A stretch of DNA of 64,000 nucleotides, from positions 64,001 to 128,000 of the forward strand of contig CAWHDT010000003.1 of NCBI GenBank assembly GCA_963828195.1, read 5' to 3'. The stretch is from Candidatus Bathyarchaeota archaeon. GTDB taxonomy: Archaea > Thermoproteota > Bathyarchaeia > Bathyarchaeales > Bathycorpusculaceae. A program made the translations under genes and the position numbers. Shown here one piece after another: positions 30,553 to 50,071 of this stretch; within the stretch, counting starts at the first letter, position 1; the number at the start of each line of letters is the position of its first letter. The notes below the pieces were generated by a model that was not told where the DNA came from, did no database searches, and saw nothing but the letters and a program-made list of their open reading frames with translations.

Positions 30553-30846
30553 GTGAATATGAAAATGGTTGAAATGAAAGTCGATACTTCCGAACTTAAA
30601 GGCGACGAAGCCAAATTAATCGAGAAACTAGCGGATTTCCTCAAGGAGAAAACAGGCGGGGAAGTAGTAACAGGCGATAAAATCTTAACGGTGAAAGGCG
30701 AAGGCGAGGGACTCAGCAAAAAATACGTACGCATAACATTGAAAAAGTTCCTCTACAAGTATGCGCTTACAGAGTCTTTCAGAGTAATAGGCAACGAAGA
30801 GAACACGCTTAAAATAAAACAGAGAAAACTTGAAGAAGAAGATTAA
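30553..30846 (+). CDS. rpl22e: Ribosomal protein eL22-like
   Basis: LADFLKEK, SKKYVRITLKKFLYK and FRVI motifs, acidic EEED tail. Confidence 0.75.
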   Translation: MNMKMVEMKVDTSELKGDEAKLIEKLADFLKEKTGGEVVTGDKILTVKGEGEGLSKKYVRITLKKFLYKYALTESFRVIGNEENTLKIKQRKLEEED

Positions 30847-31213: not shown

Positions 31214-33406
31214 CTAGATTTTTAACTTCTTATAAATGTGGAGAAATACTTTTTCGCCTTCGGGCACTGGTTCTTTGAACTTGACTGAGACTTCGCTTGG
31301 TGACAGTGAAGTCCTGATTTCGCCTGTAACTCCTGATGAAGTAAGGACTTTTTCGCCCATGAATTTGGAGGCAGCTTCCGAGGTGCCGAAGAGACCGTTC
31401 ACTGAGTACTCGTTGGCTTCACTTTTCTGTCCAACGGTTCCTTGCTTGGTCTTTTTTGAATAGAACTCTAATTTGCTGTCTGTTTCAGTGATTCTTCCTC
31501 CACCTATTATTCGGAATTCTCGGGCTTGGAGTCCAGGGTTCATCAAGAGAACGTGGTCTCCCCTTTCAGCCACGACCTGCTGCCTGAGTTCTATGTAAAC
31601 TAAGCATTTTTCAGGAGCCTTCACCTGGGTTTTCACGACGAACTTGCCGTCTTCCATGACTCCGGGCACAATGTTTCCCAGCACTTCATAAGACCCAACA
31701 AACACGTCTACATCGCTATACAGTGTCAACGGACGCAGATAGTACTTGTCCACTTCTAACTCGATTACCACACTGCGGGTCGAACTGATGGAGCCAGGAG
31801 AAACGGCTACATAACCCCTGTGAGCGTCAGCAGGTTTCAGGTCTTTGACGGCAACGCCCACTCTGTCTCCAGCGATAGCTTCCTCTTTGTCCTCCCCGAA
31901 GGACCGCAGCGAACGTACTTGACCTTTTTTGTCGATGGGTTTGATTTCAACAACATCTTTCACCTTAACTTTCCCACGGTGTACCGTGCCAGTCAAGACG
32001 GTTCCTACTCCGGCTATGGTGAATGCGTGGTCGATAGGCATCTTGAACGGACCATTCCATTGGCGAATAGGCGGACTGATTGAATCCTGCAGTGCCTTCT
32101 TGAGGTCGTCAATTCCCTTACCTGTTAAGGCTGAGACCTCCACAATCTTTGCCTTCTCATAGGGCGTTCCCCTCAGAAGAAGCTGGATTTTCTGCTTGAC
32201 CTCCTCAATTCTCTCACGGGAAGCCAAATCAACCTTGTTTAGGGCGACTACAAGATTTTTTATTCCGACGTCTTTGATTATTGCGAAATGCTCCACACTT
32301 TGAACCTGAAGACCAAGATCAGCAGCCACAACCAGCACCGCTGCGTCAATTATGTTAGCGCCTGCCACTGCATGCCTAACCAGGCTGAAGTGCCCTGGCA
32401 AATCAACAAGAGTAGCCAGATAGGGACCTAACGTGAAAGCGGAGAAGCCCATGTCCAGCGTCATCCCCCGCCGGGCAGCGTCTGGCGCCTTGTCCAGAGC
32501 AGCCGTCGAAGGTTTTTCAGTAAGCTGGATAGCGAGCATTGTTTTGCCGTGGTCAACATGCCCGAAAAGACCAACATGAACTGGGATAAGTCCTTTGCCT
32601 TCAGTCATGGTGTAACTTTTTGCGACTGCGTTTGCTTCTCTGAGGAATAATTCCACCGCATCAACAGACTTCAACCCGTCTGCCAGCGCCTTGTGCACCA
32701 CTTCTTTTCTGATTACTGAAAGAGAAATGCCTAAGTCCGGGTTCTTGTACCGAGTCATAACCTCCATCATGGCTTTTCGGGTTTCCCTCTCGATTCCCCT
32801 TGCCCTAAGTGATTTCTCGTCTTCCACAACTTTTTTGGGCTTGGACCTGATTGGCGCTTCAAGCCTTTTGAGAACCGCGGCAACGATGGTGTTGGCGATC
32901 TCTTCGATGCTTTGCTTGCTTGGATCGACTACGGCGAGTGGTGTGTCCCATTTGTAATCGCCCTTGGGCGGGTCAAGTTTCTGGTTGATTTCCTCAATGA
33001 GAGACTGCGGTATGGGCGATCCTCGTTCGTGGTTCCATTTAGTAGCTACCTCAATGGGCGTATCAACATAGACTATGTCGTAGTCAGAGCCTGCTCGTTT
33101 GGCAATCTGCCTCAGCTCGCTCCTCATCGACTTGTAGTAGTTTAAGTCATCGCTGATGACGAGAAAACCATTCTCCAAACCAGTTGCAATCGCCTTCTCA
33201 TAAAGAGCCTTCACCGACGCTTCCCGTTCAGGTTTGAATCCTTTGGAGGAGTACGAGAGCATCTCCCGAAAATCGTCCGAGCTGACAACCATGGTCGATA
33301 TCCCATGTTTGTCCTCAAGCAGGGAAGCGACGTTTTTGCTGATGGTGGACTTTCCCGAAGAGGGCAATCCGCACATTATAAGCAGGTAAGGATAACTCTG
33401 AGACAC
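31214..33406 (-). CDS. pstK-selB: PSTK (O-phosphoseryl-tRNA(Sec) kinase) - SelB (Sec-specific elongation factor) fusion
   Basis: N-terminus GLPSSGKST, DDLNYYKSMR, PP...YKWDTP; C-terminus GHVDHGKT, RGMTLDMGFSAF, DLPGH, NKVD, DHAF...GTVLTG and short archaeal-type domain IV; probable GTG start at 33406. Confidence 0.92.
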   Translation of the reverse strand: MSQSYPYLLIMCGLPSSGKSTISKNVASLLEDKHGISTMVVSSDDFREMLSYSSKGFKPEREASVKALYEKAIATGLENGFLVISDDLNYYKSMRSELRQIAKRAGSDYDIVYVDTPIEVATKWNHERGSPIPQSLIEEINQKLDPPKGDYKWDTPLAVVDPSKQSIEEIANTIVAAVLKRLEAPIRSKPKKVVEDEKSLRARGIERETRKAMMEVMTRYKNPDLGISLSVIRKEVVHKALADGLKSVDAVELFLREANAVAKSYTMTEGKGLIPVHVGLFGHVDHGKTMLAIQLTEKPSTAALDKAPDAARRGMTLDMGFSAFTLGPYLATLVDLPGHFSLVRHAVAGANIIDAAVLVVAADLGLQVQSVEHFAIIKDVGIKNLVVALNKVDLASRERIEEVKQKIQLLLRGTPYEKAKIVEVSALTGKGIDDLKKALQDSISPPIRQWNGPFKMPIDHAFTIAGVGTVLTGTVHRGKVKVKDVVEIKPIDKKGQVRSLRSFGEDKEEAIAGDRVGVAVKDLKPADAHRGYVAVSPGSISSTRSVVIELEVDKYYLRPLTLYSDVDVFVGSYEVLGNIVPGVMEDGKFVVKTQVKAPEKCLVYIELRQQVVAERGDHVLLMNPGLQAREFRIIGGGRITETDSKLEFYSKKTKQGTVGQKSEANEYSVNGLFGTSEAASKFMGEKVLTSSGVTGEIRTSLSPSEVSVKFKEPVPEGEKVFLHIYKKLKI

Positions 33407-33615
33407 CGTTTTCCCCAATTGTCTAACCCATCTTGGGTTTATAATTCTGCCGAACGTCAGACTTGATGATTTCAAGTCGCTTAGCTAGTTTGGGCTAAGA
33501 ACATCAAAAATCACATTAAGCAACGCCATCTTAACGGCTTGCAGTATGAAGACCGGACCGTTGCAACGATATTAGCGCGGAGCGCAAAGTGTAGACACAA
33601 GCACATTTTAAGAGT

Positions 33616-34197
33616 TCATTTTGAGTTGGTCGGCTGATAGGTTGCTACTATAACTCCCTTGTCAGTCGTCTTGGAGCTAACGAGCTTCAATGAAGTGAAA
33701 GGAACACCGTCGGCAAAAAGACGACGCCCTTCTCCCAGAACCAGCGGATGAATTAAAAGAACATACTCGTCTATCAGATTGCTATGCATTATTGACCGTA
33801 TCAACCCGCCGCTGCCCATTATTACAAGATCCTTTTCTAGCTCTTTCTTCAGCTTAAAAAGCGTCTCTTCAACGTCGCCATTAATCAGCGTGGAATTTTT
33901 CCATGGCAAAGGTTGCTTTAACGTTCTGGATACGACATACTTTTGCGTGTTATCCATATATGATGAGTAAGGGCTATCTGTTCGCTTGGGCCAGACTTTA
34001 AAAAAGCCCTCATAAGTCGTTCGGCCAAGCAGCAAACCGCCTGCATTAGCCATTGCCTCTCCTGCTGAAGGCATGGCTGCATACGGCGCACCCCATCCGC
34101 CACGTGTAAAGCCACCACGAGTATCCTCGTCAGGTCGCGCCGGCGCCTGCATAACCCCATCTAAAGTCAAATTCATGAATACAATGATTTTACCCAT
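33616..34197 (-). CDS. RibD C-terminal/dihydrofolate reductase-like protein
   Basis: TLDGVMQAP, LLGRTTY, GSG.L, LIDEY.L.IHP.VLG.G.RLF. Confidence 0.9.
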   Translation of the reverse strand: MGKIIVFMNLTLDGVMQAPARPDEDTRGGFTRGGWGAPYAAMPSAGEAMANAGGLLLGRTTYEGFFKVWPKRTDSPYSSYMDNTQKYVVSRTLKQPLPWKNSTLINGDVEETLFKLKKELEKDLVIMGSGGLIRSIMHSNLIDEYVLLIHPLVLGEGRRLFADGVPFTSLKLVSSKTTDKGVIVATYQPTNSK

Positions 34198-34199
34198 TC

Positions 34200-34590
34200 T
34201 TAGAAAGCTCCAGCAGCATTAGGCATATTCGGCAGTATCTGTTGTGTAATATCCCAGTACTCGACGATTTTATCGCCTTTGATGCTGGTATAAGTGAACC
34301 TGCCTCAACCCTCCTTCGCCGGGTTTAGATTTGGAGTTCAGAAATTCAGTGTGCGCTGCGACCAAGTCTCCGTCAACAAGGACATTTTTGACGAAAAATC
34401 CAGGTTCCATGTTCTGTGTATTTAGACCTTTACTTGCTGCAATCTGGGCATCGACCAAGTTTTCTATGCTTCCAGAAGTGAATGGATTATGTGTTTTACA
34501 GTCAGGCGCGAAAAAGCGTAAGCCTTCCTTGAACTTTCCCGAGCCTACTAATTTAAAATACTCTGCAACAATTTTTTTACGGTCTTCCAT
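34200..34590 (-). pseudogene. SnoaL/NTF2-like protein, frameshifted
   Basis: Removing one base near 34286 restores ...VHLYRIKGDKIVEYWDITQQILPNMPNAAGAF*, ending 2 nt before the next ATG. Confidence 0.7.
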
Positions 34591-34649
34591 TTTTCAAATA
34601 ACCACCTAAAAATTAACATTTTACTAAAAATAGCCTACTTTAATAAACC

Positions 34650-34760
34650 TTTGCTGACGGCGATTTTTCCTGAAGAAGGCAATCTGCGCGTTACAAGCAG
34701 GTGAGATAACTCTGAGACATCCGTTTCCCCAACGTCTATTCAATCTTCAGTCTATAATTG
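34650..34760 (-). pseudogene. Degenerate duplicate of the pstK-selB 5' end and upstream region
   Basis: Colinear with 33335-33446 (shared GATAACTCTGAGACA, AAGCAGGT, GGCAATC, TTTCCCCAA, TATAATT). Confidence 0.75.
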
Positions 34761-34884
34761 TGTCACATCTCACCCTTTGGCAAACGCTTGCTTGAAACTT
34801 GTGAGTTTACGCTGAGAAAAAACAGGAAAACATGTGAAAAAATAAAAGGGATAGATGGTATTTCTAGCATAGGAGAATGACCTT

Positions 34885-35493
34885 TTGAGGAAAATTATTG
34901 TTTTGTCGTTTATAACGCTCGATGGCGTCATGCAGGCGCCGGGTGGTCAAACGGAGGATACAAGCGGCGGCTTCAAGTACGGCGGCTGGGCATTTCCGCA
35001 TTTTGATGATTTTCTGGGTAAGGTTATGAGTGATCAAATGGGGCATCCTTTTGATCTATTGCTCGGTCGAAAGACCTACGACATCTGGGCCGACTATTGG
35101 CCCATGCACAATGACGAAAGGGACCCTGTTGGTTCGGGCATTAACAAAGCGACAAAGTTCGTGGCTTCGCATTCGCCTGTAAAATCCAGCTGGCCCACTA
35201 CTGTGCAATTACAGGGAGATGTTGCTGAAGCAGTTAAGAAGTTGAAACATCAAGATGGGCCTGAACTTCAAGTTCACGGAAGCGGCAACCTTATTCAGAT
35301 GCTCTTGAAAGAGGATTTGGTCGATGAGATGTGGCTAAAGATTTTTCCGATAACGCTCGGTTCAGGAAAACGCTTGTTTGCCGAAGGCACAATGCCTGCA
35401 GCATTTACTCTTATGGAATCCAGAACCTCGCCGAAGGGAGTAATCATAGCTTCTTACAGGCGAAGCGGAAAAGTGGAAACAGGATCGTTTTGA
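34885..35493 (+). CDS. RibD C-terminal/dihydrofolate reductase-like protein
   Basis: TLDGVMQAPG, LLGRKTY, HGSGNL, LVDE, GSGKRLF. Confidence 0.9.
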   Translation: MRKIIVLSFITLDGVMQAPGGQTEDTSGGFKYGGWAFPHFDDFLGKVMSDQMGHPFDLLLGRKTYDIWADYWPMHNDERDPVGSGINKATKFVASHSPVKSSWPTTVQLQGDVAEAVKKLKHQDGPELQVHGSGNLIQMLLKEDLVDEMWLKIFPITLGSGKRLFAEGTMPAAFTLMESRTSPKGVIIASYRRSGKVETGSF

Positions 35494-35614: not shown

Positions 35615-36928
35615 GTGTTGCCGTTTGATAAGTTGAAGGCCACAATCCCCAAGAGCATACTTGACAGAGGCTTAACAGTGTTAGGCACGGAGTCAGAGCC
35701 GATAAAACTGCTTTTCGAGCAAAGACGTGTGCCCCAAGAAGGCTGGAAAGACAGCCAAATCGAAGAACTGCTGAATTTGCTGGCTACGATGGATTCTGAC
35801 AAGGACAGCAAAGCAGTTTTTCTTGGCGAAAGAGAGGGCAGGGTTGCGTCCCCAGCAGTTTCAAAGTTGGCAGCTGCATTTCACCATGGGGTAGGAAGGT
35901 CAGGCGACCTCACCGAAGCCCAGCCTAAAGCGGCAGGCGCGTCTCTGATGTATTTCTTCGCTAACAAATTGGCAACTGACGCCCTGAAAAGGTTCGGTGC
36001 GCCAAACATCAAGAAGGCAGTGGTTTTTCCTGTGGCAACGGGAATGACGCTTGCTCTTGCCTTATGCGCCGCAAGAAACCAAACTGGGGGAAAAGAGGTT
36101 GTTTACCCGCAGATTGACCTCAAGACTCCTTTGAAGGCGATTCGTCTTGCTGGCCTTCAAGAAAGAATAGTTGCAGGAGAAGTCTACGGAGACGCAGTAA
36201 ACGTTCCCACAGAAGAGATAGAAAAAGCAGTTAACGAAAATACTGCCGCGATTCTGTCAACAACCACGTTCTTTGCTCCCAGAGAACCCGATAAGATCAA
36301 AGAAATCGCAAAAATCGCGGAGGAGAAAAAAGTACCGCATATCATAAACAACGCGTTTGGAGTGCAGAGCCGCGAGATCATGAAGCTGGTGAGAGGCGCA
36401 GTTGACGCGGGACGCGTAGACGCCATAGTGCAGAGCACAGACAAGAATTTCCTCACCCCGGTCGGGGGAGCAATAGTCGCTTCGCCAAACGAAGAATTCT
36501 TAGACGCCGTTTCTGAAACCTATGCGGGGAGAGCAACAGCCGCGCCCATAGCGCAGTTCTTGGCAGCCGTGCTGTCGATTGGGCTGGAAGGCTACGAGAA
36601 GCTGAGAACCCAGCAAGAAGAGAACCGAAAGTTCCTTGAATCAGCCTTGAAGGAAGTTGCAGAGAGGCATTCGCAGCGTATACTGAATGTTTATAATCCG
36701 ATATCCGTGGCTATGACGCTGGATGGATTGGACGCCAAGAAAATAGGCAAAGCCTTGTACGCGGCAAGAGTCAACGGTGCAAGAGCGCTGGAGAAAAATG
36801 ATTTCGGAGTATGCTGCCCACAGTATGTCTCATCCTACATTAACTTTGACGCCAGCATAGGAATACAAAAAAACGAAATCACCCTGGCGGCAGAGAGGTT
36901 AGACAAGGTTTTGGAAACAGTGGCGTAG
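35615..36928 (+). CDS. spcS: O-phosphoseryl-tRNA(Sec) selenium transferase (SepSecS)
   Basis: GEREGRV, HGVGRSGDL..QPKAAG, PVATGM, HIINNAFG, GRVDAIVQSTDKNF (PLP lysine). Confidence 0.95.
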   Translation: MLPFDKLKATIPKSILDRGLTVLGTESEPIKLLFEQRRVPQEGWKDSQIEELLNLLATMDSDKDSKAVFLGEREGRVASPAVSKLAAAFHHGVGRSGDLTEAQPKAAGASLMYFFANKLATDALKRFGAPNIKKAVVFPVATGMTLALALCAARNQTGGKEVVYPQIDLKTPLKAIRLAGLQERIVAGEVYGDAVNVPTEEIEKAVNENTAAILSTTTFFAPREPDKIKEIAKIAEEKKVPHIINNAFGVQSREIMKLVRGAVDAGRVDAIVQSTDKNFLTPVGGAIVASPNEEFLDAVSETYAGRATAAPIAQFLAAVLSIGLEGYEKLRTQQEENRKFLESALKEVAERHSQRILNVYNPISVAMTLDGLDAKKIGKALYAARVNGARALEKNDFGVCCPQYVSSYINFDASIGIQKNEITLAAERLDKVLETVA

Positions 36929-37018
36929 TGGCGGCGTCCAAGGGGAATCGGACCCCGAGACCTTGCGGGCTCATCGGATTTGAAGTCCGATGCTAGGACC
37001 ACCTAGCCGTGGGACGCC
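36929..37018 (-). tRNA. selC: tRNA-Sec (anticodon UCA), 9/4 fold, CCA encoded
   Basis: GGCGTCCCA-CG-GCTAGG TGGT CCTAGC-ATCGGA CTTCAAA TCCGAT-GAGCCC GCAA GGTCTC-GGGG TCCGATT CCCC-TTGGACGCC-GCCA; AT-rich TATA-like box ~30 nt upstream. Confidence 0.95.
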
Positions 37019-37131: not shown

Positions 37132-37455
37132 TTATCCATCTCTGGGCACTATCTCTCTTATCTCCACGGTGCCGTTATTCTCAAGTATTGGACAGCCTTT
37201 GGCTATTTCAACTGCTTTTTCATAACTGTCAGCCTCCACGATTATGTACCCGCCTACAGTATCGCTGCCGAAGTCCATTGTCCTCACGCCTTTTTTGGAA
37301 ATTACCCTGCCCTCCTGCTTAAACCTGCTTCCTGGAATCTTGCCGGAAGCAACCTTACCTGCCCACTCCACAAAACGGCTTGAATATTCCAAAGTCAGTT
37401 CGCTCGTTCGCAAGCCCCCTTTGAAAAGAAACGCATATAAAGTCAACCGATTCAC
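37132..37455 (-). CDS. YciI-like protein
   Basis: VGGYIIVEADSYEKAVEIAKGCP...G.VEIREI. Confidence 0.8.
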   Translation of the reverse strand: MNRLTLYAFLFKGGLRTSELTLEYSSRFVEWAGKVASGKIPGSRFKQEGRVISKKGVRTMDFGSDTVGGYIIVEADSYEKAVEIAKGCPILENNGTVEIREIVPRDG

Positions 37456-37679: not shown

Positions 37680-38852
37680 ATGTTGGCCTGTCCAGGGCGA
37701 AGATTTCGCTTGAGACTAAAGACATCGGTTACGGCTGTTCTTTTAATATCAGTTTTCCTTTCAAGCAGTATTCTCGTTCAAAGCGCGCATGCCTCAACAG
37801 CAACGGACCCGCTATTCACCAACCTTTCGCCGCTGACTATGATTCCAAATGTGGGGTCCTGCAACCCCTTCGCCAATTCCCTCGCCATTTCCGAAGGCTT
37901 CTTGTATGCAAGCGGCTATGAAGACCTCTCCACTAACAATACCAATTCACAGAGCGGTGATGGTGAGAGCTCTATAACGGGTTCCGGCCAAGTAGTGCGA
38001 GAGGCAGCCGTCTATGCCAACGGAAATGAGCCCATGGCCGTAGCTATCGTCTATGCAAGTTTGACGGGAGAGCTCCCTAACGGTGTTGGCGGTTTAGTCG
38101 GCGAAACATATGGATTGGCAAGTGCGTTTTTACTGGATTGGCCATATCTAATCTTTGACAAGACAACGGGAAAACCTTTGGATTCCAAAACATATTACTC
38201 CAACATCCCTCTTGACCTCAACTACCGCTTTTCTATGACCCCTACGGGGTGGGATGCATTAGCGCAGGGAATTATCTCGTTCGGAAATAACATAACGGCA
38301 GAGTATGAAGAAGGAATAGGAGAATCTGCTGGTGTTCCATCTGGAGGATCTCCTGAGGGAACACTTTCCTTCAATTATTCTGGATATGGCGGCAGCTCAC
38401 ATTATTTAATAATTGAGGCAACAGCCATAGCAGATTCTGAGGTAAGTTTGGACGCACAAGGGTACGGCGTTAATTCGCCTGTCTCTGAGGCGCAAGCGGT
38501 TGTGGATCCATATTTATATGTTGATCCATCATCTCCCTTGGCGGGTCAGATGCAAGTTTACGTGGGCACCACCGCCAACGCCAACCCAAGTGATCCTTCA
38601 CAGTGGACGCCGTCAGTTCAAACGCCGATAGACTTGAATAACATCCTTCCGTTGGCAACTCCATTTGCAAATTCAACTGCGTCTCCTTCATCTAGTTCAA
38701 CTCCAACTGTTTCCACGTCCCCCATAGTTCCAGAGTTTTCTAGCAAATTGCTAGGAATTACGTTAGTTGCCTCTATGCTCATAGTTTTGTCTGCGGTTAT
38801 CATTGCAAAGAAGAAAATAACCTGGAAAACCCAACGCGGTCAGCATTCTTGA
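37680..38852 (+). CDS. Secreted protein with VPEF (PEF-CTERM-like) sorting signal
   Basis: Signal peptide, S/T linker, VPEF + TM + basic tail. Confidence 0.75.
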   Translation: MLACPGRRFRLRLKTSVTAVLLISVFLSSSILVQSAHASTATDPLFTNLSPLTMIPNVGSCNPFANSLAISEGFLYASGYEDLSTNNTNSQSGDGESSITGSGQVVREAAVYANGNEPMAVAIVYASLTGELPNGVGGLVGETYGLASAFLLDWPYLIFDKTTGKPLDSKTYYSNIPLDLNYRFSMTPTGWDALAQGIISFGNNITAEYEEGIGESAGVPSGGSPEGTLSFNYSGYGGSSHYLIIEATAIADSEVSLDAQGYGVNSPVSEAQAVVDPYLYVDPSSPLAGQMQVYVGTTANANPSDPSQWTPSVQTPIDLNNILPLATPFANSTASPSSSSTPTVSTSPIVPEFSSKLLGITLVASMLIVLSAVIIAKKKITWKTQRGQHS

Positions 38853-39082
38853 AGAAACGATTTGTACCTGACTCACTCTTTTGTTTTGCGTTTCAGGGCG
38901 TCTTTCAAAATTAACAGGCGCCCGCGCTCGAAAGGCAACCACTGGAAGATATGAGAAGCAGTTTCCCAAACTTCAATGCATAACATCGGGACAAGTCAGC
39001 GCGCATTTTTTATAAAACCAGGAAACTATACATCATTTTTATTAACCTATAGCCAGAGACTGTTTTTGAGTGGCGAATTCAG

Positions 39083-39526
39083 ATGGCGAATTTGTTTAAA
39101 ATCTCAAAATACGCTGTGGCTCTTTTAGTAGCTGGCGGGCTCGCCTGGTTTATTGCAGGATTGTTCTTTGGCGGATCCGTTGCGATCTCTTATTTTTCAA
39201 CCGGTTCTCTCGCGAAGGCGGGCATTGCAACCCCTGGCTACCCAGCCAATGCAGTGCGCCAGATGGCCTGGGATCAATTTTACATCAACCTCTATTCCGC
39301 TGTAATCGGGTTGTTCGCAATCATGATTGGACTGACGGCGTTCAGACGAGCGGAGAAATGGGCGTGGTATGCAACATTGGTCTTGGTCATAAATGGGGTG
39401 ATTACAAGCGTCTTTGATTATTTGAGTTGGGGCGGTTGGTACACCATATTCATTACTTCTTTGCCGGCGCTTCTTGCTTTGTTGTTCTCTGCCAAAAGCT
39501 TCTTCCCAGATGCGCGTCAAACATGA
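39083..39526 (+). CDS. Membrane protein
   Basis: Four TM helices, AFRR.EKWAW motif. Confidence 0.7.
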   Translation: MANLFKISKYAVALLVAGGLAWFIAGLFFGGSVAISYFSTGSLAKAGIATPGYPANAVRQMAWDQFYINLYSAVIGLFAIMIGLTAFRRAEKWAWYATLVLVINGVITSVFDYLSWGGWYTIFITSLPALLALLFSAKSFFPDARQT

Positions 39527-39950: not shown

Positions 39951-42458
39951 CTACTTTGCTGCGGGTTGAGGGACGGGTTTAACCACAGGGGCTGGGGCTG
40001 CTGCTTTGCGTTTGAGCATGTTCTCTAAGGTTGGTTGAAGCTTTGCGTTTTCCGCTTGTATCTTTTCTTTTCCCAGTGCCTCCATCTGCTCGTTCATTTC
40101 CTTGACGATACTGACGAATTTCTCTCCTTCAGCTGATGAAACATAATCAACCCTGAATCTTTCTTTGCTCAATCCAAGCTTTGTCAGCATTCCAGCTAAG
40201 GCATCCATGCGCGCTTTCATCCTGATGTTTCCTGAGATGTAGTGGCAGTCGCTGGGAAGATGGCAGGCGGTTATCAGTACCCCTGCGGCTCCCAGCCTAA
40301 ATGCTTCCATAACGAAGTCCCGATCTACCCGCCCAGTGCACATTACCCTTATCGCCCTTGTAGTAGGAGGGTATTCCAGCCGGCTCGTCCCCGCTCGGTC
40401 CGCGCCGGCGTAACCTCACCAGTTACACATAAACGTCAGTATCTTATCCTCGGGTTTGTTTTCTAAAGCAGCTCTGATTTGCGAGGTTATTTGTTCATCT
40501 GTAAAGTGCATCTGACTTATGGCGTCTTGTGGGCATTCAGCAACGCAGGTTCCGCATCCGTGGCATTGGGCTGCATTTATCTGGGCTGGTTGTCCCTCAG
40601 CCGCGGTTATGGCTCCGAAGGGACAGCTTTTCACGCAGACCCCGCATTTTGCCTTCACGTTTCTGCATTTGGCGATGTCTACTATTGAGACAATTGGCTC
40701 TATCTTCCATTTCGGCTGCGAAAGGATGGTTGCAGCTCTCGCCGCCGCGCCGCTTCCTTGCGCTACGCTGTAGGGTATGTCCTTTGGTCCCTGGCAAGCA
40801 CCTGCTAGGAATACTCCGTCCATAGGTGTGTCCATTGGTTTGAGCTTCGGGTGGCTTTCCATGAAGAACCCGTCTGATCCACGCGTTATGTGCAGGATGC
40901 TGGCCAATTCTTCGGCTCCTTTGCTGGGTATGGCGGCGGTGCTTAGCACAACAAGTTCGGCTTCGACTTCGATGGGTTGTCCAAGCGTCGAGTCCTCTGC
41001 TCGGATAGTCAAGTTTTTGGTTTTTGGGTCTTCCATTATTTGGGACGGTTTTCCCCTGATGAAGATGATTCCCATTTCACGGGCTCTTCGGTAGAATTCT
41101 TCGTAGCCTTTGGAGGGAGTGCGTATATCTATGTAGAAAAGGTAGACTTCCACTTCGTTATGGTAGTGTTCTTTGAGAAGGATGGCTTCTTTTAGCCCAT
41201 ACATGCAGCAGAAACCTGAACAGTACTCGTACTTCTTTACGTCTCTTGAGCCGACGCATTGGATGATGGCAACGCTTTTCGGTCTCTTTCCATCGGATGA
41301 GCGGACTACGTGTCCAGCTGTCGGGCCGCCTGCTGTAATGAGTCTCTCAAACTCCAGAGCTGTAATTACGTTATCGTATTTTCCATAGCCATACCTTGGA
41401 TCGTCATATGGTAGATAAATGTCGCAGCCTGTTGTTGCTATGATTGCTCCAACTTCCAACTCAACTTCTTCTGGCTTTTGATTAAAGTTGATGGCTTCAC
41501 GCGCGCCGCAGGCATCCACGCATTTGAAGCACTCTATGCAGTAATCCCTGTTTATCGAGTAGATAAGAGGCACTGCCTGATCAAACGGAATGGAGATGGC
41601 TTTTCTCACGCCTAAGTTCATATCCCACTCATTGGGGTATTCTATTGGGCAGGCGTCTTTGCATTCTCCGCAGCCAGTACATTTGTCGGCCATAACATAT
41701 TTCGGGTTTTTGCGAACTTTAACTCTGAAGTTGCCTACAAACCCCTCTACTTTGAGGATGTCCGCATTGGTTATTACTTGGACCTTAGGATGGCGCAGTA
41801 CTTCCACCATCCTAGGTCCTTCAATTCATATGCTGCAATCCAAAGTTGGAAAAGTCTTGTCGAGCTGTGCCATGTGTCCTCCTATGCTTGTGTTCTTCTC
41901 GACAAGGTATACTTGGAACCCCATATTAGCCAGATCCAGAGCGGAGTTGATGCCGGCAATGCCGCCGCCGATAACCAAGGCGTTTTTGGTTACAGGGACA
42001 TCCATGGGTTCAAGAGGCTTAAGCAGCCTCGCCTTGGCCACCGCCATCTTTATGGTATCTTTTGCTTTTGCTGTGGCTTCTTTTGGATTACTGGGATGGC
42101 ACCACGAAGCGAACTCACGTATGTTCGCCATTTCAAACACATAGGGATTTAGCCCTGCTTCACTTACGGTTTTCCTAAATGTTGGCTCATGCATCCTTGG
42201 GCTGCAAGCGGCTACGACGACACGGTTCAATCTGTGTTCTTTTATTGCTTTTCTGATTTCTTCTTGTCCCGGGTCAGCGCAGGTGTAGCGGTTTTCTTTA
42301 ACGTAGACTACGTCAGGTATAGTTTTTGCGTACTCGGCGACTGAAGGCACGTCCACGGTTCCTGCGATGTTCATGCCGCAGTGGCAGACGAAAACGCCAA
42401 TCCGTAGCTCTTCTGATTTTTGGGTTTCAGTTTGTTTTTGGGTTTCTGGGCTGCTCAT
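39951..42458 (-). CDS. hdrA-mvhD: HdrA-MvhD fusion selenoprotein (835 aa, Sec at codons 211 and 681)
   Basis: Three ORF-track pieces share one frame, separated only by TGA at 41826-41828 ([16 protein letters not shown]) and 40416-40418 ([22 protein letters not shown]); GGGIAG FAD motif, ferredoxin motifs, MvhD MCTGRVD and DCHY. Confidence 0.93.
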
Positions 42459-43390
42459 TTCACTATCTCCACTAAGTTGAATCTTTTTGAAACTACATTA
42501 TGCCTATTCTCGCCAGCGACAGCTCTAAATTCTTTAGCAGCGTCGGTTGGTGAAGTTAGTCTTTCCAGGGCTTTGTTCCATGTGCCTGAATGAATTGAGG
42601 TATGTCTTATTTTTGTTCGTTTAAGAGTTAACGCTTCAGGCACGGGGCAAACGTTTTTGCATGCGCCGCAGTAAGTGCAGAATAATTCGTTAATGTGAAC
42701 TTTCTTGTCTTCGCCCAGCGTTAAGGCGCCGGGGATGGGGCAGATGTCGAGGCAGTCTTGGCATCCTTCGGGGCATTTTTCCTGATTGATTGCGATTACG
42801 CCTTCAAACGTTTTTTTGACTTTTATGGTGCCAGGACTGCATTTGAACTCGCATACTCTGCAAGTTGGGCAATACTCTTTTTGAATGTCAAGGCTGAGTT
42901 GGACGCGTGTCTTCTCGGTAGGTGATAAAGCCTCAAAGTTTTCGATTGGTCTGCCGTCATAACCAACCTTGGAGACTTTAATTAGCGATAGCGGGCAGGC
43001 TTTTTCGCAGTCTACGCATTCTTTCTGGCACTGGCTCGTGTCAACTTTTATGTCGCGGACCAGCTGCGGGTAACTTTCTTTCGCCAGCACAGATAGATCA
43101 TGTGCGCCGTTCAAAGTAACTTTGACTGCGCCATACGGACAGGTGACATCGCAGACGCCGCAGAAATTGCATTTTGCCAAATCAACGTCTATTTTGGCTT
43201 TTTTTGCTTTTTCCCCTTGAATTTTAGGCTGCTTCTGTATGCTTATGGCTTCTTTAGGGCAAGCCAAACTGCATATTTGGCAGCTAACACAGCGTTTTTT
43301 GTCAAGCGTTAACTTGTAATTCTTAACTTGCAAACCCCATTCTAACGTTAAAGCATCTGCCGCATCTTTCTTTACGTTTTTAAACGGCAT
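42455..43390 (-). CDS. fwdF: Polyferredoxin, FwdF-like
   Basis: Six CxxCxxCxxxCP-type motifs; stop overlaps the hdrA start (ATGA). Confidence 0.8.
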
Positions 43391-43657
43391 TTATTTTATC
43401 ACCGAGAGGTTCTTTCCCGCAAAGTCAATTAGTTTAGAGCCCGAACAGGTTAATTAGAATGATTGGAGTACAGAGCTTTTGATATAAATATTGCTTGAAA
43501 AAACAACCGTTTTCCTCATAACAAACTACAAATCTTCTCCATTCCATTTTAGATTCTGATAGAGCGAATTGACCGTAAATATTAAAGATGTATCTGGCGT
43601 AATAATGCTGAACTTGAGTAATGCTGATCTATGCTTTGTTTAAGCATTAAAGGTTGA

Positions 43658-44365: not shown

Positions 44366-47300
44366 ATGCATTCTATTACGTGTGGATGTGCTTTAATGAC
44401 GCAAACGGTTACCTCTCAACCTATGAAGCGAGTTGAAGATTGGAAGTCACGGTTAATCGACCTCTCAAAAAGAAACAATCTCTTATTTTTCCATAAGGCA
44501 AAACGCGGAAACCTTGCTGTCACGCAGCCTGAACAGCAGGCAATATTCAATATGTTAGTTTTGAAGAAACGACGTTTAGAGTTCTGGATGCCTCCTGAAG
44601 AGAAAAAGCCTGAGATACAAGGCAAGGCAAAAGTTAAAGGAAAAGCTAAGGCTAAAACAGCCAAAAGCAACGTAACCGCAGCAGTTAAGCCCGATAGCGA
44701 TGCTGAAGTGCCGGAAGCATCAAAGCAGCGCCCAACCGCCAATCAGCTGGTCTGTGGGAACCTGTCTCGTACTGACCTTGAAAGAACTCTTAAAGGGTTG
44801 CAGTGGCGTTCTCTTCTTGATTACCGCGAACGAGGAGTTCGCATTCTGCATGCTGCATTCGGCACTTTGAACTGGGTAGATTTGGAGACAAAAGAAAACG
44901 TTCAGTCCCCCCTAATTCTTGTACCTTTAGAATTAACGCGGGATTCTATACGCAAACCCTACGAGATCGCGGTGCCGCCAGTTGAAGAAGAAGCAGTCCT
45001 AAACCCTGCATTGCAGGTTAAACTGAAAAACGACTACAAAATTGAGTTGCCGCCTTTGCCTGATGAGTGGGAAAACCAAAACTTGACAGACTACTTTAGC
45101 ACGGTAAATCAAGCTGTTGCTGAAATGGGTTGGAAGGCTGAGCCGTCGGTTGACCTTGGCCTTTTTTCATTCCAAAAACTCGTTATTTACAAAGACTTGG
45201 AGGCGAACGCTGATTTAGTTACCCAGCATCCGATAATTCGAGCAATCGCCGGCATAAAAGAAGACAACCTTATCTTGGAAGGCTTGCCTGACGAGAAAGA
45301 CGTGGACAAAATTGAGGCTCCAGAAAAAACCTATCAAGTTCTTGATGCCGACAGCAGCCAACGGGTTGCGATTGAGTATGCGTTGCGGGGACAAAGCTTT
45401 GTCATGAAAGGTCCGCCTGGAACGGGAAAAAGCCAAACTATCGCAAACATAATTGCTGAATGTATTGCTAACGGAAAATCTGTGCTTTTTGTTAGCGACA
45501 AGATGGCTGCTCTGGAAGTGGTTTATAAGAGGTTAAGTGAGGTTGGTTTAGCTCATTTCTGCCTTGAACTTCACAGCAGCAAAGCTAACAAGCAGCAAGT
45601 TGTGGCTGAACTCAAACGTAGTCTTGACGAAAACCTTGTTCCCCGTAAACTGCCGTCGCCTCATGAGTTCGAGCGGATGACTGAATACCGTGAAGCATTA
45701 AATGGTTATGTTACTGCGTTGCATGAGAAACGTCCATACTTGCAGAGAAGCGCTTATGAAGTTTTAAGCTTGATTTCAAGCCTTGAACGGGTTGCCTTTG
45801 TACCGGTGGGCTTAACTGAACTGGGTACCTTGACGCCTCAGAAGATGCATGAGCTTGAAGAACTTGTTTCTCAATTAAGCAAAGTGTGGCAGGTTATAGA
45901 AGAACCAGATTTTCCATGGCTAGGTTACCGCGCAAACACCTATAATCTTGAAATTCGCTCAGAAGTGTTAACCGAGCTTGAAAACATAAGCGAAACATTG
46001 CACGAACTGCAGCTGGAAAACGAAGATTTTTCCGCCAAATTTGGCGTGTTTCCGCCCGAGACGTTTGCGCGGTTAAAATGGCTTCTTGAAGTCAGCAAGT
46101 TTCTCTATGAAAGCCCCAAGCCAGAAGCTTCTTGGTTAACGAACCCTGACATTGAAAAACTCTTAAACGAAGCAAAAACCTACAATGACACTGCCGTCTG
46201 GATTAAGAACACCCGCATCAACCTTATGGAACGTTATCACCCATCATTATTCAACCTGGTCCTCAACCGGTCAACGGAAATAAAACAGCAACTTGACGCG
46301 CTCGACAGGATGTTGCCAGCGGTAGAGTTGGAAGAAAGCGAGTTTTTGCACAAACAAGAGCAGCTCTTAGCTTACCTAAGGCACACACAGTTATCATTAA
46401 AGAAGTGGCGTGAAACCTCGCAAGCGCTTGCTCCGATGCTTGGATTAGATAGCGAAGGCTTGACGATTAATCAATTAAAAGAATTATCTAAAATGGCGCT
46501 GTTATGTTTCGCAGAGGACAAACCTGAGCCTCAATGGTTCGACGCCGGCTATTTCAGGCAAGTTCAAGAAACAGTTTCAAAAGCAAAACGGCTCTACCAA
46601 GACCACAACTTGCTGAAAAGCAGGCTTGACCAAACCTACACGGACGGCATTTACGAGCTTGACCTTGACGGACTCATCGAAAGATACAACGAGTACCAAG
46701 GCTCTCTGAACATATTTAATTCCGCTTACCGCAGCGACCAAAAACAAATCGCCAGAGTAACCAACGACGGCAAAGTTCCGAAAACCGTGCTAACCGACCT
46801 CATCGACGCCCGCAAAGTCAAAAAGCTGCACACCCAGATTGAGGAGTCAGCTGAAACAGTCAGAACCTTGCTTGGTCACTACTATCATAAGTCCAAAACA
46901 GATTTTCAGGGCGCAGAAAAAGCGATGGAGTTAACTGCTGAAATTCGCAAGCTTTCTTGGGCAACCCAAATTCCAGAAAACCTCTTGAAACTAATAACTA
47001 ACACTTCCAGCCCTTCGCCGATGATTAAGAATTTAGGCTTAGAGCTTCAGGAGTCCGTTGATAAGTGGGAGCAGCTTGGCAAAGATCTGGAGCCGCTTAT
47101 ACCTCCAAGCATTCCTAAATCAGCAACCGCTATTACTCAAACGCCATTGCAGCTGCTTGAGGAATGGGCGACTGAGACAGAAAAACAACTGAACTCCCTG
47201 TTCACGCTGACCAAAGAGACAATGGCAACATGTAAGCAGGAACCTCAGAACTACAAGCAACTTTTGAAAGACCTAAGAGACGCTGAAGATATACGGAAAA

Positions 47301-50071
47301 AAGAAGCCGCCATAATAGGCGAAAAAACCCAGCTTCAAGCAAAATTCGGCTCACGCTTCCATGAGTTAGAAACGGATTGGCAAGATATTTTAGCCGTTCT
47401 AGGCTGGTCAAAAATCGTTCAAGCAGCTTTCCTTGACATCCCGATTCCACAAGCCTACGCAAGTATTGCGAGTCAGGGCCCCGCCGCCGCGCCATTAAAT
47501 ACGGAACTTAACCAAAAATTCAACGCTTCATTAAATGTTCTGTCAGCTTTTGAAGCCCGTTTTGAATCGGAAATGAAATATCAAAACCGAAGGCTGAAGG
47601 ATTTAGAAATTAAAGTAATCGGCGAAAGAATAAAAGCCCTTCGGGACCGAGTTGACGACTTGCAAGTTTGGATTGACTTCAAAGACATCAAAAACCGCTT
47701 TGCCCTAAGGGGCTTAGACCAATTCTTTAATCGTTTGGCGGAGCAGCATATTATGGCTGATGACTTAGTTGATGTTTTCCGCAGAGGAGTCTATCAAGAA
47801 TGGATAAACAACCTCTACAGTGAAGATCAGAAGTTGGGTAGGTTTAGAAGGGAAAATCATGAGCAGGTAGTTGAGGACTTCAGGAAATTAGACCAAGACC
47901 TTATTCACTTGACCTCCAGCATGGTTATTGAACAGGCAAACAGCCGAAAACCCCAGGACATACTGGTTCAGGCAGCCGACAGCGAAGCCAACATTTTGCT
48001 TAAAGAAGCCGCAAAGAAGAGGCAGTTAATGCCGATTCGCACGCTGCTGCAGAAGATTCCTAACCTGCTTGTTAAACTAAAGCCTTGCCTATTAATGAGC
48101 CCAATAACCGTCAGCCAGTTCCTGCCCCCTGAAAGCAACAAGTTTGACTTAGTTTTGTTTGATGAGGCTTCGCAGATTGTTCCTGAAGACGCCATCGGCT
48201 CAATTTACCGTGGAAAAACCTTGGTTGTTGCAGGCGATAACAAGCAGTTGCCGCCAACATCTTTCTTCCAGAAAAACCTCATTGACGACGTTGACTGGGA
48301 CGAGTTAAGCGACGAGGACCTGGAAGTCTTCGACAGCATACTTGATGAGTGTTTAGGCATCGGGTTACCAGTTAAAACTTTGAAGTGGCACTACCGAAGC
48401 AGACATGAAGACTTAATTGCATTCTCAAACCACCGCTTCTACGACGACAACCTTATAACTTTTCCCGCGGCAAAAGCCCAAACAGATAGCTTAGGCGTAA
48501 AATTAATCTATGTTCCTGACGGCGTCTATGACCGCGGCGGCAAAAGAAACAACCCGAATGAAGCAGAAAAAGTAGCCGACCTCGTTTTCGAACACTTCCG
48601 CCTGTACCCCAAGAAAACCTTGGGGGTTGTAACCTTTAGCGTGGCGCAGATGGAAACCGTTGAAGAAGCCATAGATCGCCGACTTAAAGAGCACCCTGAC
48701 TTCGAGCAGTTCTTTAAAGAAGATCGGCTGGAAGGCTTTTTCGTTAAGAACTTGGAGAACGTGCAAGGCGACGAGCGGGATGTTATATTCTTCAGCGTCG
48801 GCTACGGTTATGACCAGCAGAAACAAATGGCGATGAACTTTGGGCCATTAAACAAGCCTGGCGGCGAACGACGCTTAAACGTTGCCGTTACCCGTGCCCG
48901 CGAAAAAGTAGTTCTAATCACCTCGATTAAAGCCACGGATATTGATGCTGAAACTAAAGCAGTCGGAGTCCAAACGCTACGTTACTACCTTGACTACGCA
49001 GAGCATGGGCCTGAAACGTTAGAGTCAGTTAAGTCTAAAGAAGGCGAGTTTGAGTCAGCTTTAGACGAAGATGTAGCGGCGGAAATAAAGAAGATGGGGT
49101 ATGAAGTAGTTCCGCAGGTAGGCTGCAGCGGCTACCGAATAGACATCGGCGTGGTCAACCCAGTTAACCCTGGAAACTACCTGTTAGGCGTAGAATGCGA
49201 CGGCGCCACATACAAATCCAGCAGCAGCGCACGAGACAGAGACCGACTCCGCGAGCAAGTGCTCAGGCAACTAGGCTGGCGCATCCACCGCATTTGGTCT
49301 CCAGCTTGGGTTGCAAGACGCGACTCTGAAATCCGACGACTAAAAGACACTCTTGAACAAGCAAACAAATTACAACTTGAAAAAGACACCCAGAAACCAA
49401 TCATTGACACAAAAGAAAATATGGCTCCGAAAACCGATGTTCAGAAAAACCATTTTGCAGGTGTAGAAAAAATCGGGCAGCCCTACAAGATTTACCCGCT
49501 TAAAGCAACCTTTAACCCGTACATTAAAGTTGCGACAGCCCAATCCACGTATGATTCGCGTCAGAAAAACGAGTTTCACTTTCCCGAAAACAGGGAAGCT
49601 CAAACAAAACTTCTCGCTGAGCTTGTGCAAAATGAGGGTCCGGTGCATTTTGACTATGCTGTTGAACGTTTAGCTGCTGCGTGGGGTGCTAAGCAGGTGA
49701 CGCCGCAGATAACTCACGCGGTAAAGGAAGCGCTCAACAACTTGATAAGGGAACAGAAAGTGGTGATTAAAGGCAGTTTCCTTTGGCCGCTTGGACTTAA
49801 AGAAACGCCGATCCGCGTTCCAGTGCAGGGCATTCCTGAATCCAAACGCAAAGCCGAGTACATTGCTCCTGAAGAAATTGAATCCGCCATGACGCTGGTT
49901 GCTCAGTACGCGCTAGGCATAAGTGAAGATTCGTTGATTGCTGAGACCGAAAAAGTGTTCGGTGTCAACCATTCAGGCGAAGAAGGCAAAGCGGTGTTCT
50001 CTGAAATACTGAAGCGGCTAATGAGAGACAGAAAACTCGTCAGCAAAGACGACGTCGTCACCGCCGCTTAA
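44366..50071 (+). CDS. DUF4011 - SF1 (DNA2/NAM7-like) helicase - Vsr-like nuclease - DUF3320 protein
   Basis: W..RLIDLS.RN.L, GPPGTGKSQTI, FDEASQ, GDNKQLPP, WHYRS, VQGDERD, RRLNVAVTRA, RIDIGV...GVECDG, RIWS. Confidence 0.9.
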   Translation: MHSITCGCALMTQTVTSQPMKRVEDWKSRLIDLSKRNNLLFFHKAKRGNLAVTQPEQQAIFNMLVLKKRRLEFWMPPEEKKPEIQGKAKVKGKAKAKTAKSNVTAAVKPDSDAEVPEASKQRPTANQLVCGNLSRTDLERTLKGLQWRSLLDYRERGVRILHAAFGTLNWVDLETKENVQSPLILVPLELTRDSIRKPYEIAVPPVEEEAVLNPALQVKLKNDYKIELPPLPDEWENQNLTDYFSTVNQAVAEMGWKAEPSVDLGLFSFQKLVIYKDLEANADLVTQHPIIRAIAGIKEDNLILEGLPDEKDVDKIEAPEKTYQVLDADSSQRVAIEYALRGQSFVMKGPPGTGKSQTIANIIAECIANGKSVLFVSDKMAALEVVYKRLSEVGLAHFCLELHSSKANKQQVVAELKRSLDENLVPRKLPSPHEFERMTEYREALNGYVTALHEKRPYLQRSAYEVLSLISSLERVAFVPVGLTELGTLTPQKMHELEELVSQLSKVWQVIEEPDFPWLGYRANTYNLEIRSEVLTELENISETLHELQLENEDFSAKFGVFPPETFARLKWLLEVSKFLYESPKPEASWLTNPDIEKLLNEAKTYNDTAVWIKNTRINLMERYHPSLFNLVLNRSTEIKQQLDALDRMLPAVELEESEFLHKQEQLLAYLRHTQLSLKKWRETSQALAPMLGLDSEGLTINQLKELSKMALLCFAEDKPEPQWFDAGYFRQVQETVSKAKRLYQDHNLLKSRLDQTYTDGIYELDLDGLIERYNEYQGSLNIFNSAYRSDQKQIARVTNDGKVPKTVLTDLIDARKVKKLHTQIEESAETVRTLLGHYYHKSKTDFQGAEKAMELTAEIRKLSWATQIPENLLKLITNTSSPSPMIKNLGLELQESVDKWEQLGKDLEPLIPPSIPKSATAITQTPLQLLEEWATETEKQLNSLFTLTKETMATCKQEPQNYKQLLKDLRDAEDIRKKEAAIIGEKTQLQAKFGSRFHELETDWQDILAVLGWSKIVQAAFLDIPIPQAYASIASQGPAAAPLNTELNQKFNASLNVLSAFEARFESEMKYQNRRLKDLEIKVIGERIKALRDRVDDLQVWIDFKDIKNRFALRGLDQFFNRLAEQHIMADDLVDVFRRGVYQEWINNLYSEDQKLGRFRRENHEQVVEDFRKLDQDLIHLTSSMVIEQANSRKPQDILVQAADSEANILLKEAAKKRQLMPIRTLLQKIPNLLVKLKPCLLMSPITVSQFLPPESNKFDLVLFDEASQIVPEDAIGSIYRGKTLVVAGDNKQLPPTSFFQKNLIDDVDWDELSDEDLEVFDSILDECLGIGLPVKTLKWHYRSRHEDLIAFSNHRFYDDNLITFPAAKAQTDSLGVKLIYVPDGVYDRGGKRNNPNEAEKVADLVFEHFRLYPKKTLGVVTFSVAQMETVEEAIDRRLKEHPDFEQFFKEDRLEGFFVKNLENVQGDERDVIFFSVGYGYDQQKQMAMNFGPLNKPGGERRLNVAVTRAREKVVLITSIKATDIDAETKAVGVQTLRYYLDYAEHGPETLESVKSKEGEFESALDEDVAAEIKKMGYEVVPQVGCSGYRIDIGVVNPVNPGNYLLGVECDGATYKSSSSARDRDRLREQVLRQLGWRIHRIWSPAWVARRDSEIRRLKDTLEQANKLQLEKDTQKPIIDTKENMAPKTDVQKNHFAGVEKIGQPYKIYPLKATFNPYIKVATAQSTYDSRQKNEFHFPENREAQTKLLAELVQNEGPVHFDYAVERLAAAWGAKQVTPQITHAVKEALNNLIREQKVVIKGSFLWPLGLKETPIRVPVQGIPESKRKAEYIAPEEIESAMTLVAQYALGISEDSLIAETEKVFGVNHSGEEGKAVFSEILKRLMRDRKLVSKDDVVTAA

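Follow-up and report, generated by a model that had tools for sequence, protein, structure and literature searches.

Stable coding-region hairpins follow both UGA codons of a predicted double-selenocysteine HdrA–MvhD gene in Bathyarchaeia

The window, a stretch of 64,000 nt from a Candidatus Bathyarchaeota contig, carries on its minus strand a fused hdrA–mvhD gene (39951..42458) that, judged by its sequence, almost certainly encodes a genuine double selenoprotein, the selenium itself being predicted. Each of its two in-frame UGA codons is followed, within the coding sequence (CDS), by a stable hairpin that begins 6 nt past the UGA, and we predict that these hairpins probably take part in recoding. 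In the explanation that we favour, to which we give a probability of about 0.75 as a whole and with its recoding part included, the product would be a flavin-containing, electron-bifurcating Hdr subunit fused to the MvhD electron-input module.

A fused gene read through two UGA codons

As the original prediction had stated, three open reading frames share one frame at this locus, and reading through TGA gives a protein of 835 aa; with TGA read as U the minus-strand translation is unbroken and ends at TAG. Pfam and NCBIfam place the HdrA and MvhD domains in a single chain, with Pfam FAD-binding, 4Fe-4S and FlpD/MvhD (residues 673–796) matches. The NCBIfam HdrA2 model (NF040770) spans residues 19–799 at 1079.1 bits, and because this does not reach the cut-off of 1100 we term the protein HdrA2-like rather than file it as HdrA2. 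The nearest solved relative is HdrA of PDB 5ODC, and the C-terminal tail aligns with MvhD chains. We aligned the product with HdrA and MvhD homologs, as had been suggested, and found by hand count that U211 (UGA 1, 41826..41828, minus strand) lies opposite Cys197 of 5ODC HdrA, the canonical HdrA Sec position (197 in methanococcal numbering), and that U681 (UGA 2, 40416..40418, minus strand) lies opposite the second Cys of the MvhD CNWC motif, in a CxxU motif (CNWUGYAGAD) at the start of the MvhD domain. The proposal that both UGAs are Sec in one polypeptide, at canonical positions, is thus borne out by the homologs.

Other parts of that proposal need amending. Both residues had been placed at Fe–S-ligand Cys positions, which is uncertain for U211, since the 2026 structure of Methanococcus maripaludis HdrA, in which residue 197 is Sec, is described in its accessible text as having a Cys–Sec pair between cluster A3 and FAD (PMC13518236). 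The likeness to VhuD holds for the CxxU position, which is Sec, but not for the second VhuD Sec position, which is Cys here (C732, its place inferred from the 50-codon spacing given in PMC4989117). The fusion had also been presented as unusual, which was overstated: the accessible text of PMC5296606 describes it as the HdrA2 subclass, and it is the normal Cys form in relatives. HdrA2 of Methanosarcina acetivorans has the same fused architecture (PMC5296606), from which the window gene differs in its two UGA/Sec codons, its operon with a polyferredoxin gene and the location of hdrB-type genes elsewhere in the genome.

By analogy with homologs, electrons would enter via the MvhD [2Fe-2S] centre, go on to FAD and there be split between HdrBC on one side and ferredoxin or the neighbouring polyferredoxin on the other, with Sec211 working in a Cys–Sec relay as in M. 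maripaludis. The polyferredoxin gene (FwdF/MvhB-like by Pfam and NCBIfam; 42455..43390, minus strand) is the first of the operon and overlaps the hdrA start by 4 nt; such a gene lies directly upstream of hdrA in 6 of the 13 loci fetched. An archaeal BRE/TATA-like promoter box of the operon, at approximately 43481..43497 (minus strand, hand-counted), is conserved in an alignment of 31 upstream regions. More distant HdrA paralogs lie on contig C5 of the source genome, near hdrB-type and hydrogenase genes.

We surveyed related genomes for both forms of the gene (below, G000 is the source genome, other G numbers are relatives and L numbers are further loci). Among the best 30 loci from 41 genomes, 28 carry the same HdrA–MvhD fusion with TGC or TGT at both positions and no stop between them, and two (G000 and G009) carry TGA at both. 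Intact two-TGA genes occur in 17 other genomes at 83–93% identity. Across the family the first UGA site is present in 22 of 332 genomes; of the 21 Sec-form genomes inspected further, 18 have an intact two-TGA gene, one has it split over two contigs and two have it frameshifted (G217 and G550). A metagenome scan returned 57 loci, 42 of them of the double-Sec type. All 23 double-Sec genes group together (SH-aLRT 100), away from the family's Cys copies, in a quick tree of 69 sequences that fixes neither the root nor the direction of change. The UGAs have therefore not arisen as recent nonsense mutations in the ortholog of the genus. Single-Sec HdrA–MvhD fusions in the same tree (n = 13) have Cys in MvhD. 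A Cys-form copy lies directly downstream of the Sec gene in six genomes and about 15 kb away in one.

The metagenome scan also yielded a sister group of the polyferredoxin–hdrA–mvhD operon (15 of the 57 loci, for example L244:1556-4851 and L259:1197-4507), with Sec at site 1 and, in the seven loci that reach it, Cys at site 2. These operons have a short bacterial-type hairpin and adjoin genes that look bacterial, suggesting that the operon has passed between domains and changed its recoding signal. Separately, both the Sec-hdrA and its hairpin are of bacterial type on a contig titled Ca. Bathyarchaeota (L120:3001-3036), through contamination or transfer.

Selenocysteine machinery and its clients

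Three components of the Sec pathway lie within 9 kb of hdrA–mvhD. They are a tRNA-Sec with anticodon UCA (36933..37018, minus strand; found by ARAGORN, and 65.8 bits against a gathering score of 47 for Rfam RF01852), the archaeal/eukaryotic-type Sec synthase SepSecS (35615..36928, plus strand; PF05889, 393 bits; TIGR03531, 482 bits, above cut-off) and, by profile matches, a fusion of the kinase PSTK with the Sec elongation factor aSelB (31214..33475, minus strand), whose translation may really begin some 22 codons downstream of the start given here, homologs being about 731 aa long. With SelD, encoded on a separate contig (G000:C7:117717-118580) and itself carrying Cys at its own Sec position, the genome holds a complete set: tRNA-Sec, PSTK, SepSecS, aSelB and SelD. 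SepSecS matches are found in 15 of 401 class genomes, 13 of them strong, and in 23 of 332 family genomes. The Sec-form gene and SepSecS occur together in 20 of the 22 Sec-form genomes and 20 of the 23 SepSecS genomes, counts in which kin are not independent; the two UGA-site genomes without SepSecS are 56% and 82% complete.

A Bathyarchaeota Sec cluster with a PSTK–aSelB fusion has already been reported (Mukai et al. 2022, PMC8762117), from the same lineage and with the same fused factor as in the window. The accessible text of that paper names neither a selenoprotein nor a SECIS, although its Fig. 9B may already show the gene. The fusion is proposed there to give protection from SepCysS, a role that it cannot have in the five genomes that we searched (G000, G387, G459, G259 and G413), because SepCysS was found in none of them; their PSTK–aSelB fusions are left unexplained by the published rationale, as far as the accessible text sets it out.

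These data bear on the alternative that the gene is a pseudogene or an assembly error, or that UGA is read as Cys or Trp. Other in-frame TGAs do lie inside Pfam domains of G000, for example in a topoisomerase and a CDGSH protein, and two relatives have frameshifted copies. Against this, the same codons recur across many assemblies, at known Sec positions and close to tRNA-Sec, and each flank of each UGA is under purifying selection: dN/dS against 22 other Sec genes is 0.048 before (over 48 columns only), 0.087 between and 0.086 after the UGAs. Assembly error and relaxed selection, which had been named as grounds for rejecting the gene, thus both failed to materialize, with dN/dS below 0.1 on all three segments. 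UGA is a normal stop genome-wide, since 666 of 2744 script-called G000 genes end in TGA, and the failure to find SepCysS in all five genomes searched also tells against this alternative, which we regard as very improbable. Contigs from public runs had a best share of 0.34, and RNA contigs were mostly 87–94% alike; they were uninformative both for the TGAs and for expression.

We found no other selenoprotein in G000 among SelD, Fdh-like proteins, peroxiredoxins, UGSC families and NiFe hydrogenase large subunits, the last having Cys in both DPCxxCxxH motifs. Inspection of the 14 top read-through candidates of G000 (eight of them Pfam-scanned) gave no further selenoprotein, with the proviso that short or novel ones could escape. 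The Sec machinery may therefore serve HdrA–MvhD alone, as far as these imperfect screens go. Single in-frame TGAs without hairpins in a topoisomerase, a CDGSH protein, a polyketide-cyclase-like protein and a PAS protein (G000:C3:368374, C5:824407, C5:615784 and C5:805465) are probably nonsense changes or assembly errors. In a relative, a UGSC-family protein with an in-frame TGA lies near selD and SepSecS (L101:4300-4860; G075:C8:31277-31711, minus strand); its match to NF041046 (120.8 bits) is just below cut-off, and the accessible texts do not list this selenoprotein family for archaea. SelD, mostly in its Cys form, is present in 94 of 332 family genomes as against 23 for SepSecS, an excess that points to a second use of selenium; the family's selD mostly lies beside a 2-hydroxyacyl-CoA dehydratase-like gene, so labelled by sequence appearance.

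Unrelated genes are interspersed in the Sec cluster of the window (33616-35493, 37132-37455 and 37680-39526), encoding two RibD C-terminal proteins, SnoaL-like, YCII-like and membrane proteins; the cluster is more compact in relatives. A small open reading frame (30553-30846, plus strand) with a weak match to ribosomal protein L22e (22.8 bits against a cut-off of 23.6) is syntenic with the Sec cluster in two relatives. On the far side of the operon, 44366-50071 (plus strand) encodes a 1901-aa DUF4011/AAA helicase/MTES_1575 restriction-endonuclease-like/DUF3320 protein, possibly a defence gene.

Hairpins downstream of the UGA codons

Hairpin 1 (41780..41819, minus strand) spans +7 to +46 after UGA 1, with about 15 bp and a folding energy of −26.7 kcal/mol (z −5.81); hairpin 2 (40379..40409, minus strand) spans +7 to +37 after UGA 2, contains a tandem GA/GA internal loop and folds at −22.3 kcal/mol (z −3.17). 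The two share their position and no common sequence. None of 200 shuffles was as stable as the native sequence at either site, and only 1 of 2000 synonymous recodings at each site folded as well. Among 668 TGA read-through candidates of G000, UGA sites 1 and 2 rank first and second in hairpin strength, and an equally stable fold follows none of 8540 Cys codons in the genome. At site 1, folds range from −20.7 to −27.4 in the first 10 Sec loci versus −4.1 to −17.2 in 42 Cys loci. The corresponding ranges at site 2 are −22.8 to −24.3 (first 10 Sec loci) versus −7.3 to −22.8 (40 Cys loci), and since one Cys homolog reaches −22.8, energy alone does not fully separate the two forms there.

Synonymous sites are most constrained at the hairpins. 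In 11-codon windows across eight full-length Sec genes, synonymous change is lowest at codons 220–230 (0.051) and 684–694 (0.084), against a mean of 0.315; eight Cys genes have no such dip. Fourteen of 211 four-fold columns are invariant in 23 Sec genes, ten of them within the two hairpins, and none of 132 is invariant in 30 Cys genes; because the latter are more divergent, it is the within-gene comparison that carries weight. All 12 scored stem positions of hairpin 2 are invariant among 11 distinct variants. Hairpin 1 is less rigid, its outermost pair being broken in 8 and pair 9:44 in 6 of 27 variants, and locus L253 has no lower stem. Neither hairpin has a two-sided compensatory change (27 and 11 distinct variants, one frameshifted row included), which leaves folding energy, frozen synonymous sites and one-sided changes as the evidence for the structures; covariation is limited because protein and RNA constraints overlap.

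The selD gene offers a third Sec site for comparison. A clear hairpin at about +7 to +36 is present in 3 of 12 Sec-type selD genes (G039, G136 and G620), and the other nine have no strong one. In six similar Sec-type selD genes of the family, synonymous divergence over codons +3 to +13 is 0.03 versus 0.50, the lowest value among 296 windows, and Cys-type selD has no dip at that position. A shared selD geometry pairs 73.6% of cells versus 21–48% in slid controls; many of these pairs also form in Cys-type selD, and the covariation test falls short of significance, its observed values being reached by 30 and by 233 of 500 shuffles.

The hairpins might serve a purpose other than recoding, such as hiding an internal AUG at codon 216 or pausing for Fe–S loading. 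An in-frame AUG does lie under hairpin 1, preceded by a purine-rich stretch, but there is none under hairpin 2. Moreover, Cys homologs, which have the same fold and the same Met, lack such conservation, and the equivalent position is constrained in Sec-type and not in Cys-type selD. We consider such a purpose improbable.

With the hairpins taking part in recoding, as we favour, each UGA would be served by a separate local signal. While UGA occupies the ribosomal A site, a hairpin starting 6 nt downstream would lie where the mRNA enters the ribosome; there it could slow termination and favour delivery of Sec-tRNA by PSTK–aSelB, acting like a eukaryotic Sec redefinition element (SRE) or a viral read-through stimulator. 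A conserved stem-loop 6 nt past the Sec UGA, the mark of an SRE by the spacing in the accessible text of PMC3628699, is present at both sites. The SRE of eukaryotic SelN is likewise a coding-region stem-loop at this distance (PMC3628699), but SelN mRNAs also bear a 3′-UTR SECIS, which we did not find here, and we do not claim homology.

A different mode of action is that the hairpins are sequence-specific binding sites, analogous to the bacterial SECIS and read by PSTK–aSelB or an adaptor, rather than generic stimulators. Their position fits the bacterial definition as given in the accessible text of PMC4989117, namely a single CDS stem-loop directly after the UGA with a G early in, or starting, the loop; all 23 genes agree at a four-fold site within the hairpin 1 loop; and the six selD genes keep their sequence without a strong fold. 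Bacterial SECIS elements in Sec-HdrA are also coding-region hairpins just past the UGA, one per Sec codon, but they have 6–7-bp stems starting near +16 or +21 and are read by SelB winged-helix domains, and this bacterial SECIS-binding domain has no Pfam match in PSTK–aSelB, nor do the domain lists show it for any of the 120 homologs listed. Loops differ between the two sites and vary within each. Among the matches listed, nearly all bacterial by title, 117 of 121 folded GTDB Sec-HdrA loci have short hairpins with a later start; none of these has a +7 stem or reaches −20 kcal/mol. Binding of this kind seems unlikely to us. Descent of hairpin 1 from a bacterial SECIS was considered and rejected: the 3′ arms fall on different codons, and we therefore read the likeness as convergent.

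Search for a UTR SECIS and relation to known systems

Archaeal SECIS elements have been placed in untranslated regions, according to the accessible texts of PMC9499178, PMC11227280, PMC9622424 and PMC4989117. Searching with the Rfam SECIS families returned nothing in the window and nothing in 10 loci at E values up to 10. With self-made patterns, used without a positive control, the euryarchaeal form (UTR, GAA/A bulge, three S–S pairs) matched 1 of 24 flanks against 0.3 expected and none in G000, and the Asgard eukaryote-like form (3′-UTR AUGA/GA kink-turn core and upper stem) matched 7 of 24 against 6.5 expected, at unrelated positions. The 3′ flanks show no conservation as such among Sec loci. 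In 12 of 24 they match the hdrA–mvhD CDS, one over 15 nt only, and so contain pseudogene debris; in the window, the segment 39571..39612 (minus strand) is what is left, in decayed form, of the MvhD portion of a tandem Cys-form copy since lost (84% over 43 nt to a Cys-form CDS, E 4e-6). We rejected a 3′-UTR SECIS because the likeness between flanks is this decayed Cys paralog, and the folding of the G000 flank does not stand out from that of its shuffles (z −0.89). A 5′ leader hairpin is not supported as a SECIS either, being variable across operons and missing in G000 (z +0.9). Leaders homologous to 43391-43466 (minus strand) fold, in some genomes though not in G000, into a long hairpin (z down to −4.4), which is a possible regulatory element of the operon.

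It may nevertheless be that the protein is a genuine selenoprotein whose recoding needs a distal SECIS of a new type, undetected in the 5′ leader, the upstream gene or far 3′, with the hairpins raising efficiency as the SelN SRE does. Described archaeal SECIS elements reside in UTRs and can act at long distance, as the accessible parts of PMC9622424 and PMC9499178 have it; eukaryotic SREs are described as cis elements additional to a SECIS (PMC3541580); a stable leader hairpin is found in some operons; and most family selD elements fold weakly. The state of the flanks, unconserved and half of them pseudogene debris, speaks against it, as do the variability of the leader hairpin and its absence from G000. 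No other window of the hdrA CDS is equally constrained, the polyferredoxin gene having been compared by overall identity only. We hold a distal SECIS to be a substantial possibility, although a doubtful one, and that the hairpins are the only cis signal is a proposal with a little less than an even chance.

Sec HdrA and VhuD/MvhD of Methanococcales, Methanopyrus and Asgard archaea use the same Sec positions (HdrA ~200; VhuD CxxU) and archaeal-type machinery too, and some of those genomes hold Cys backup copies, such as Vhu/Vhc. There the genes are separate neighbours with a 3′-UTR SECIS, common to both in Asgard (PMC4989117 and PMC11227280, in their accessible text), whereas here we find one polypeptide, one of the VhuD Sec positions, CDS hairpins and no detected UTR SECIS. 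RNAz applied to Loki coding sequences and flanks reportedly gave only 3′ elements (PMC4989117, accessible text), and the accessible texts of PMC9499178 and PMC4989117 state that no archaeal SECIS-binding factor is known. A 2026 review limits Sec users to Methanococcales, Methanopyrales and Asgard, leaving Bathyarchaeia unmentioned (PMC13188914). We found no description of a double-Sec HdrA–MvhD or of archaeal coding-region recoding hairpins in the open literature, as far as its accessible text goes; subscription papers, figures and supplements may hold one. The fusion, each Sec position and the Sec machinery of Bathyarchaeia are already known, and their combination is of modest novelty. What is likely new is the probable recoding signal, conserved UGA-proximal CDS hairpins without a detectable UTR SECIS.

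Tentatively, and at not quite even odds, we suggest that Bathyarchaeia have a third archaeal way of recoding UGA, with no UTR SECIS, a codon-local hairpin 6 nt past each UGA, and an archaeal-type elongation factor joined to the tRNA kinase and devoid of the SECIS-binding domain of bacteria, the machinery of G000 serving essentially one protein. Gene calling splits these genes into three pieces, so that the Hdr complexes of about 7% of the family's genomes are probably mis-annotated as broken. If the reading is true, archaeal/eukaryotic-type machinery working with in-CDS signals would blur the split between bacterial and archaeal/eukaryotic systems, and the hairpins would be a prokaryotic counterpart of the eukaryotic SRE, in a compact four-gene system that could be tested in Methanococcus.
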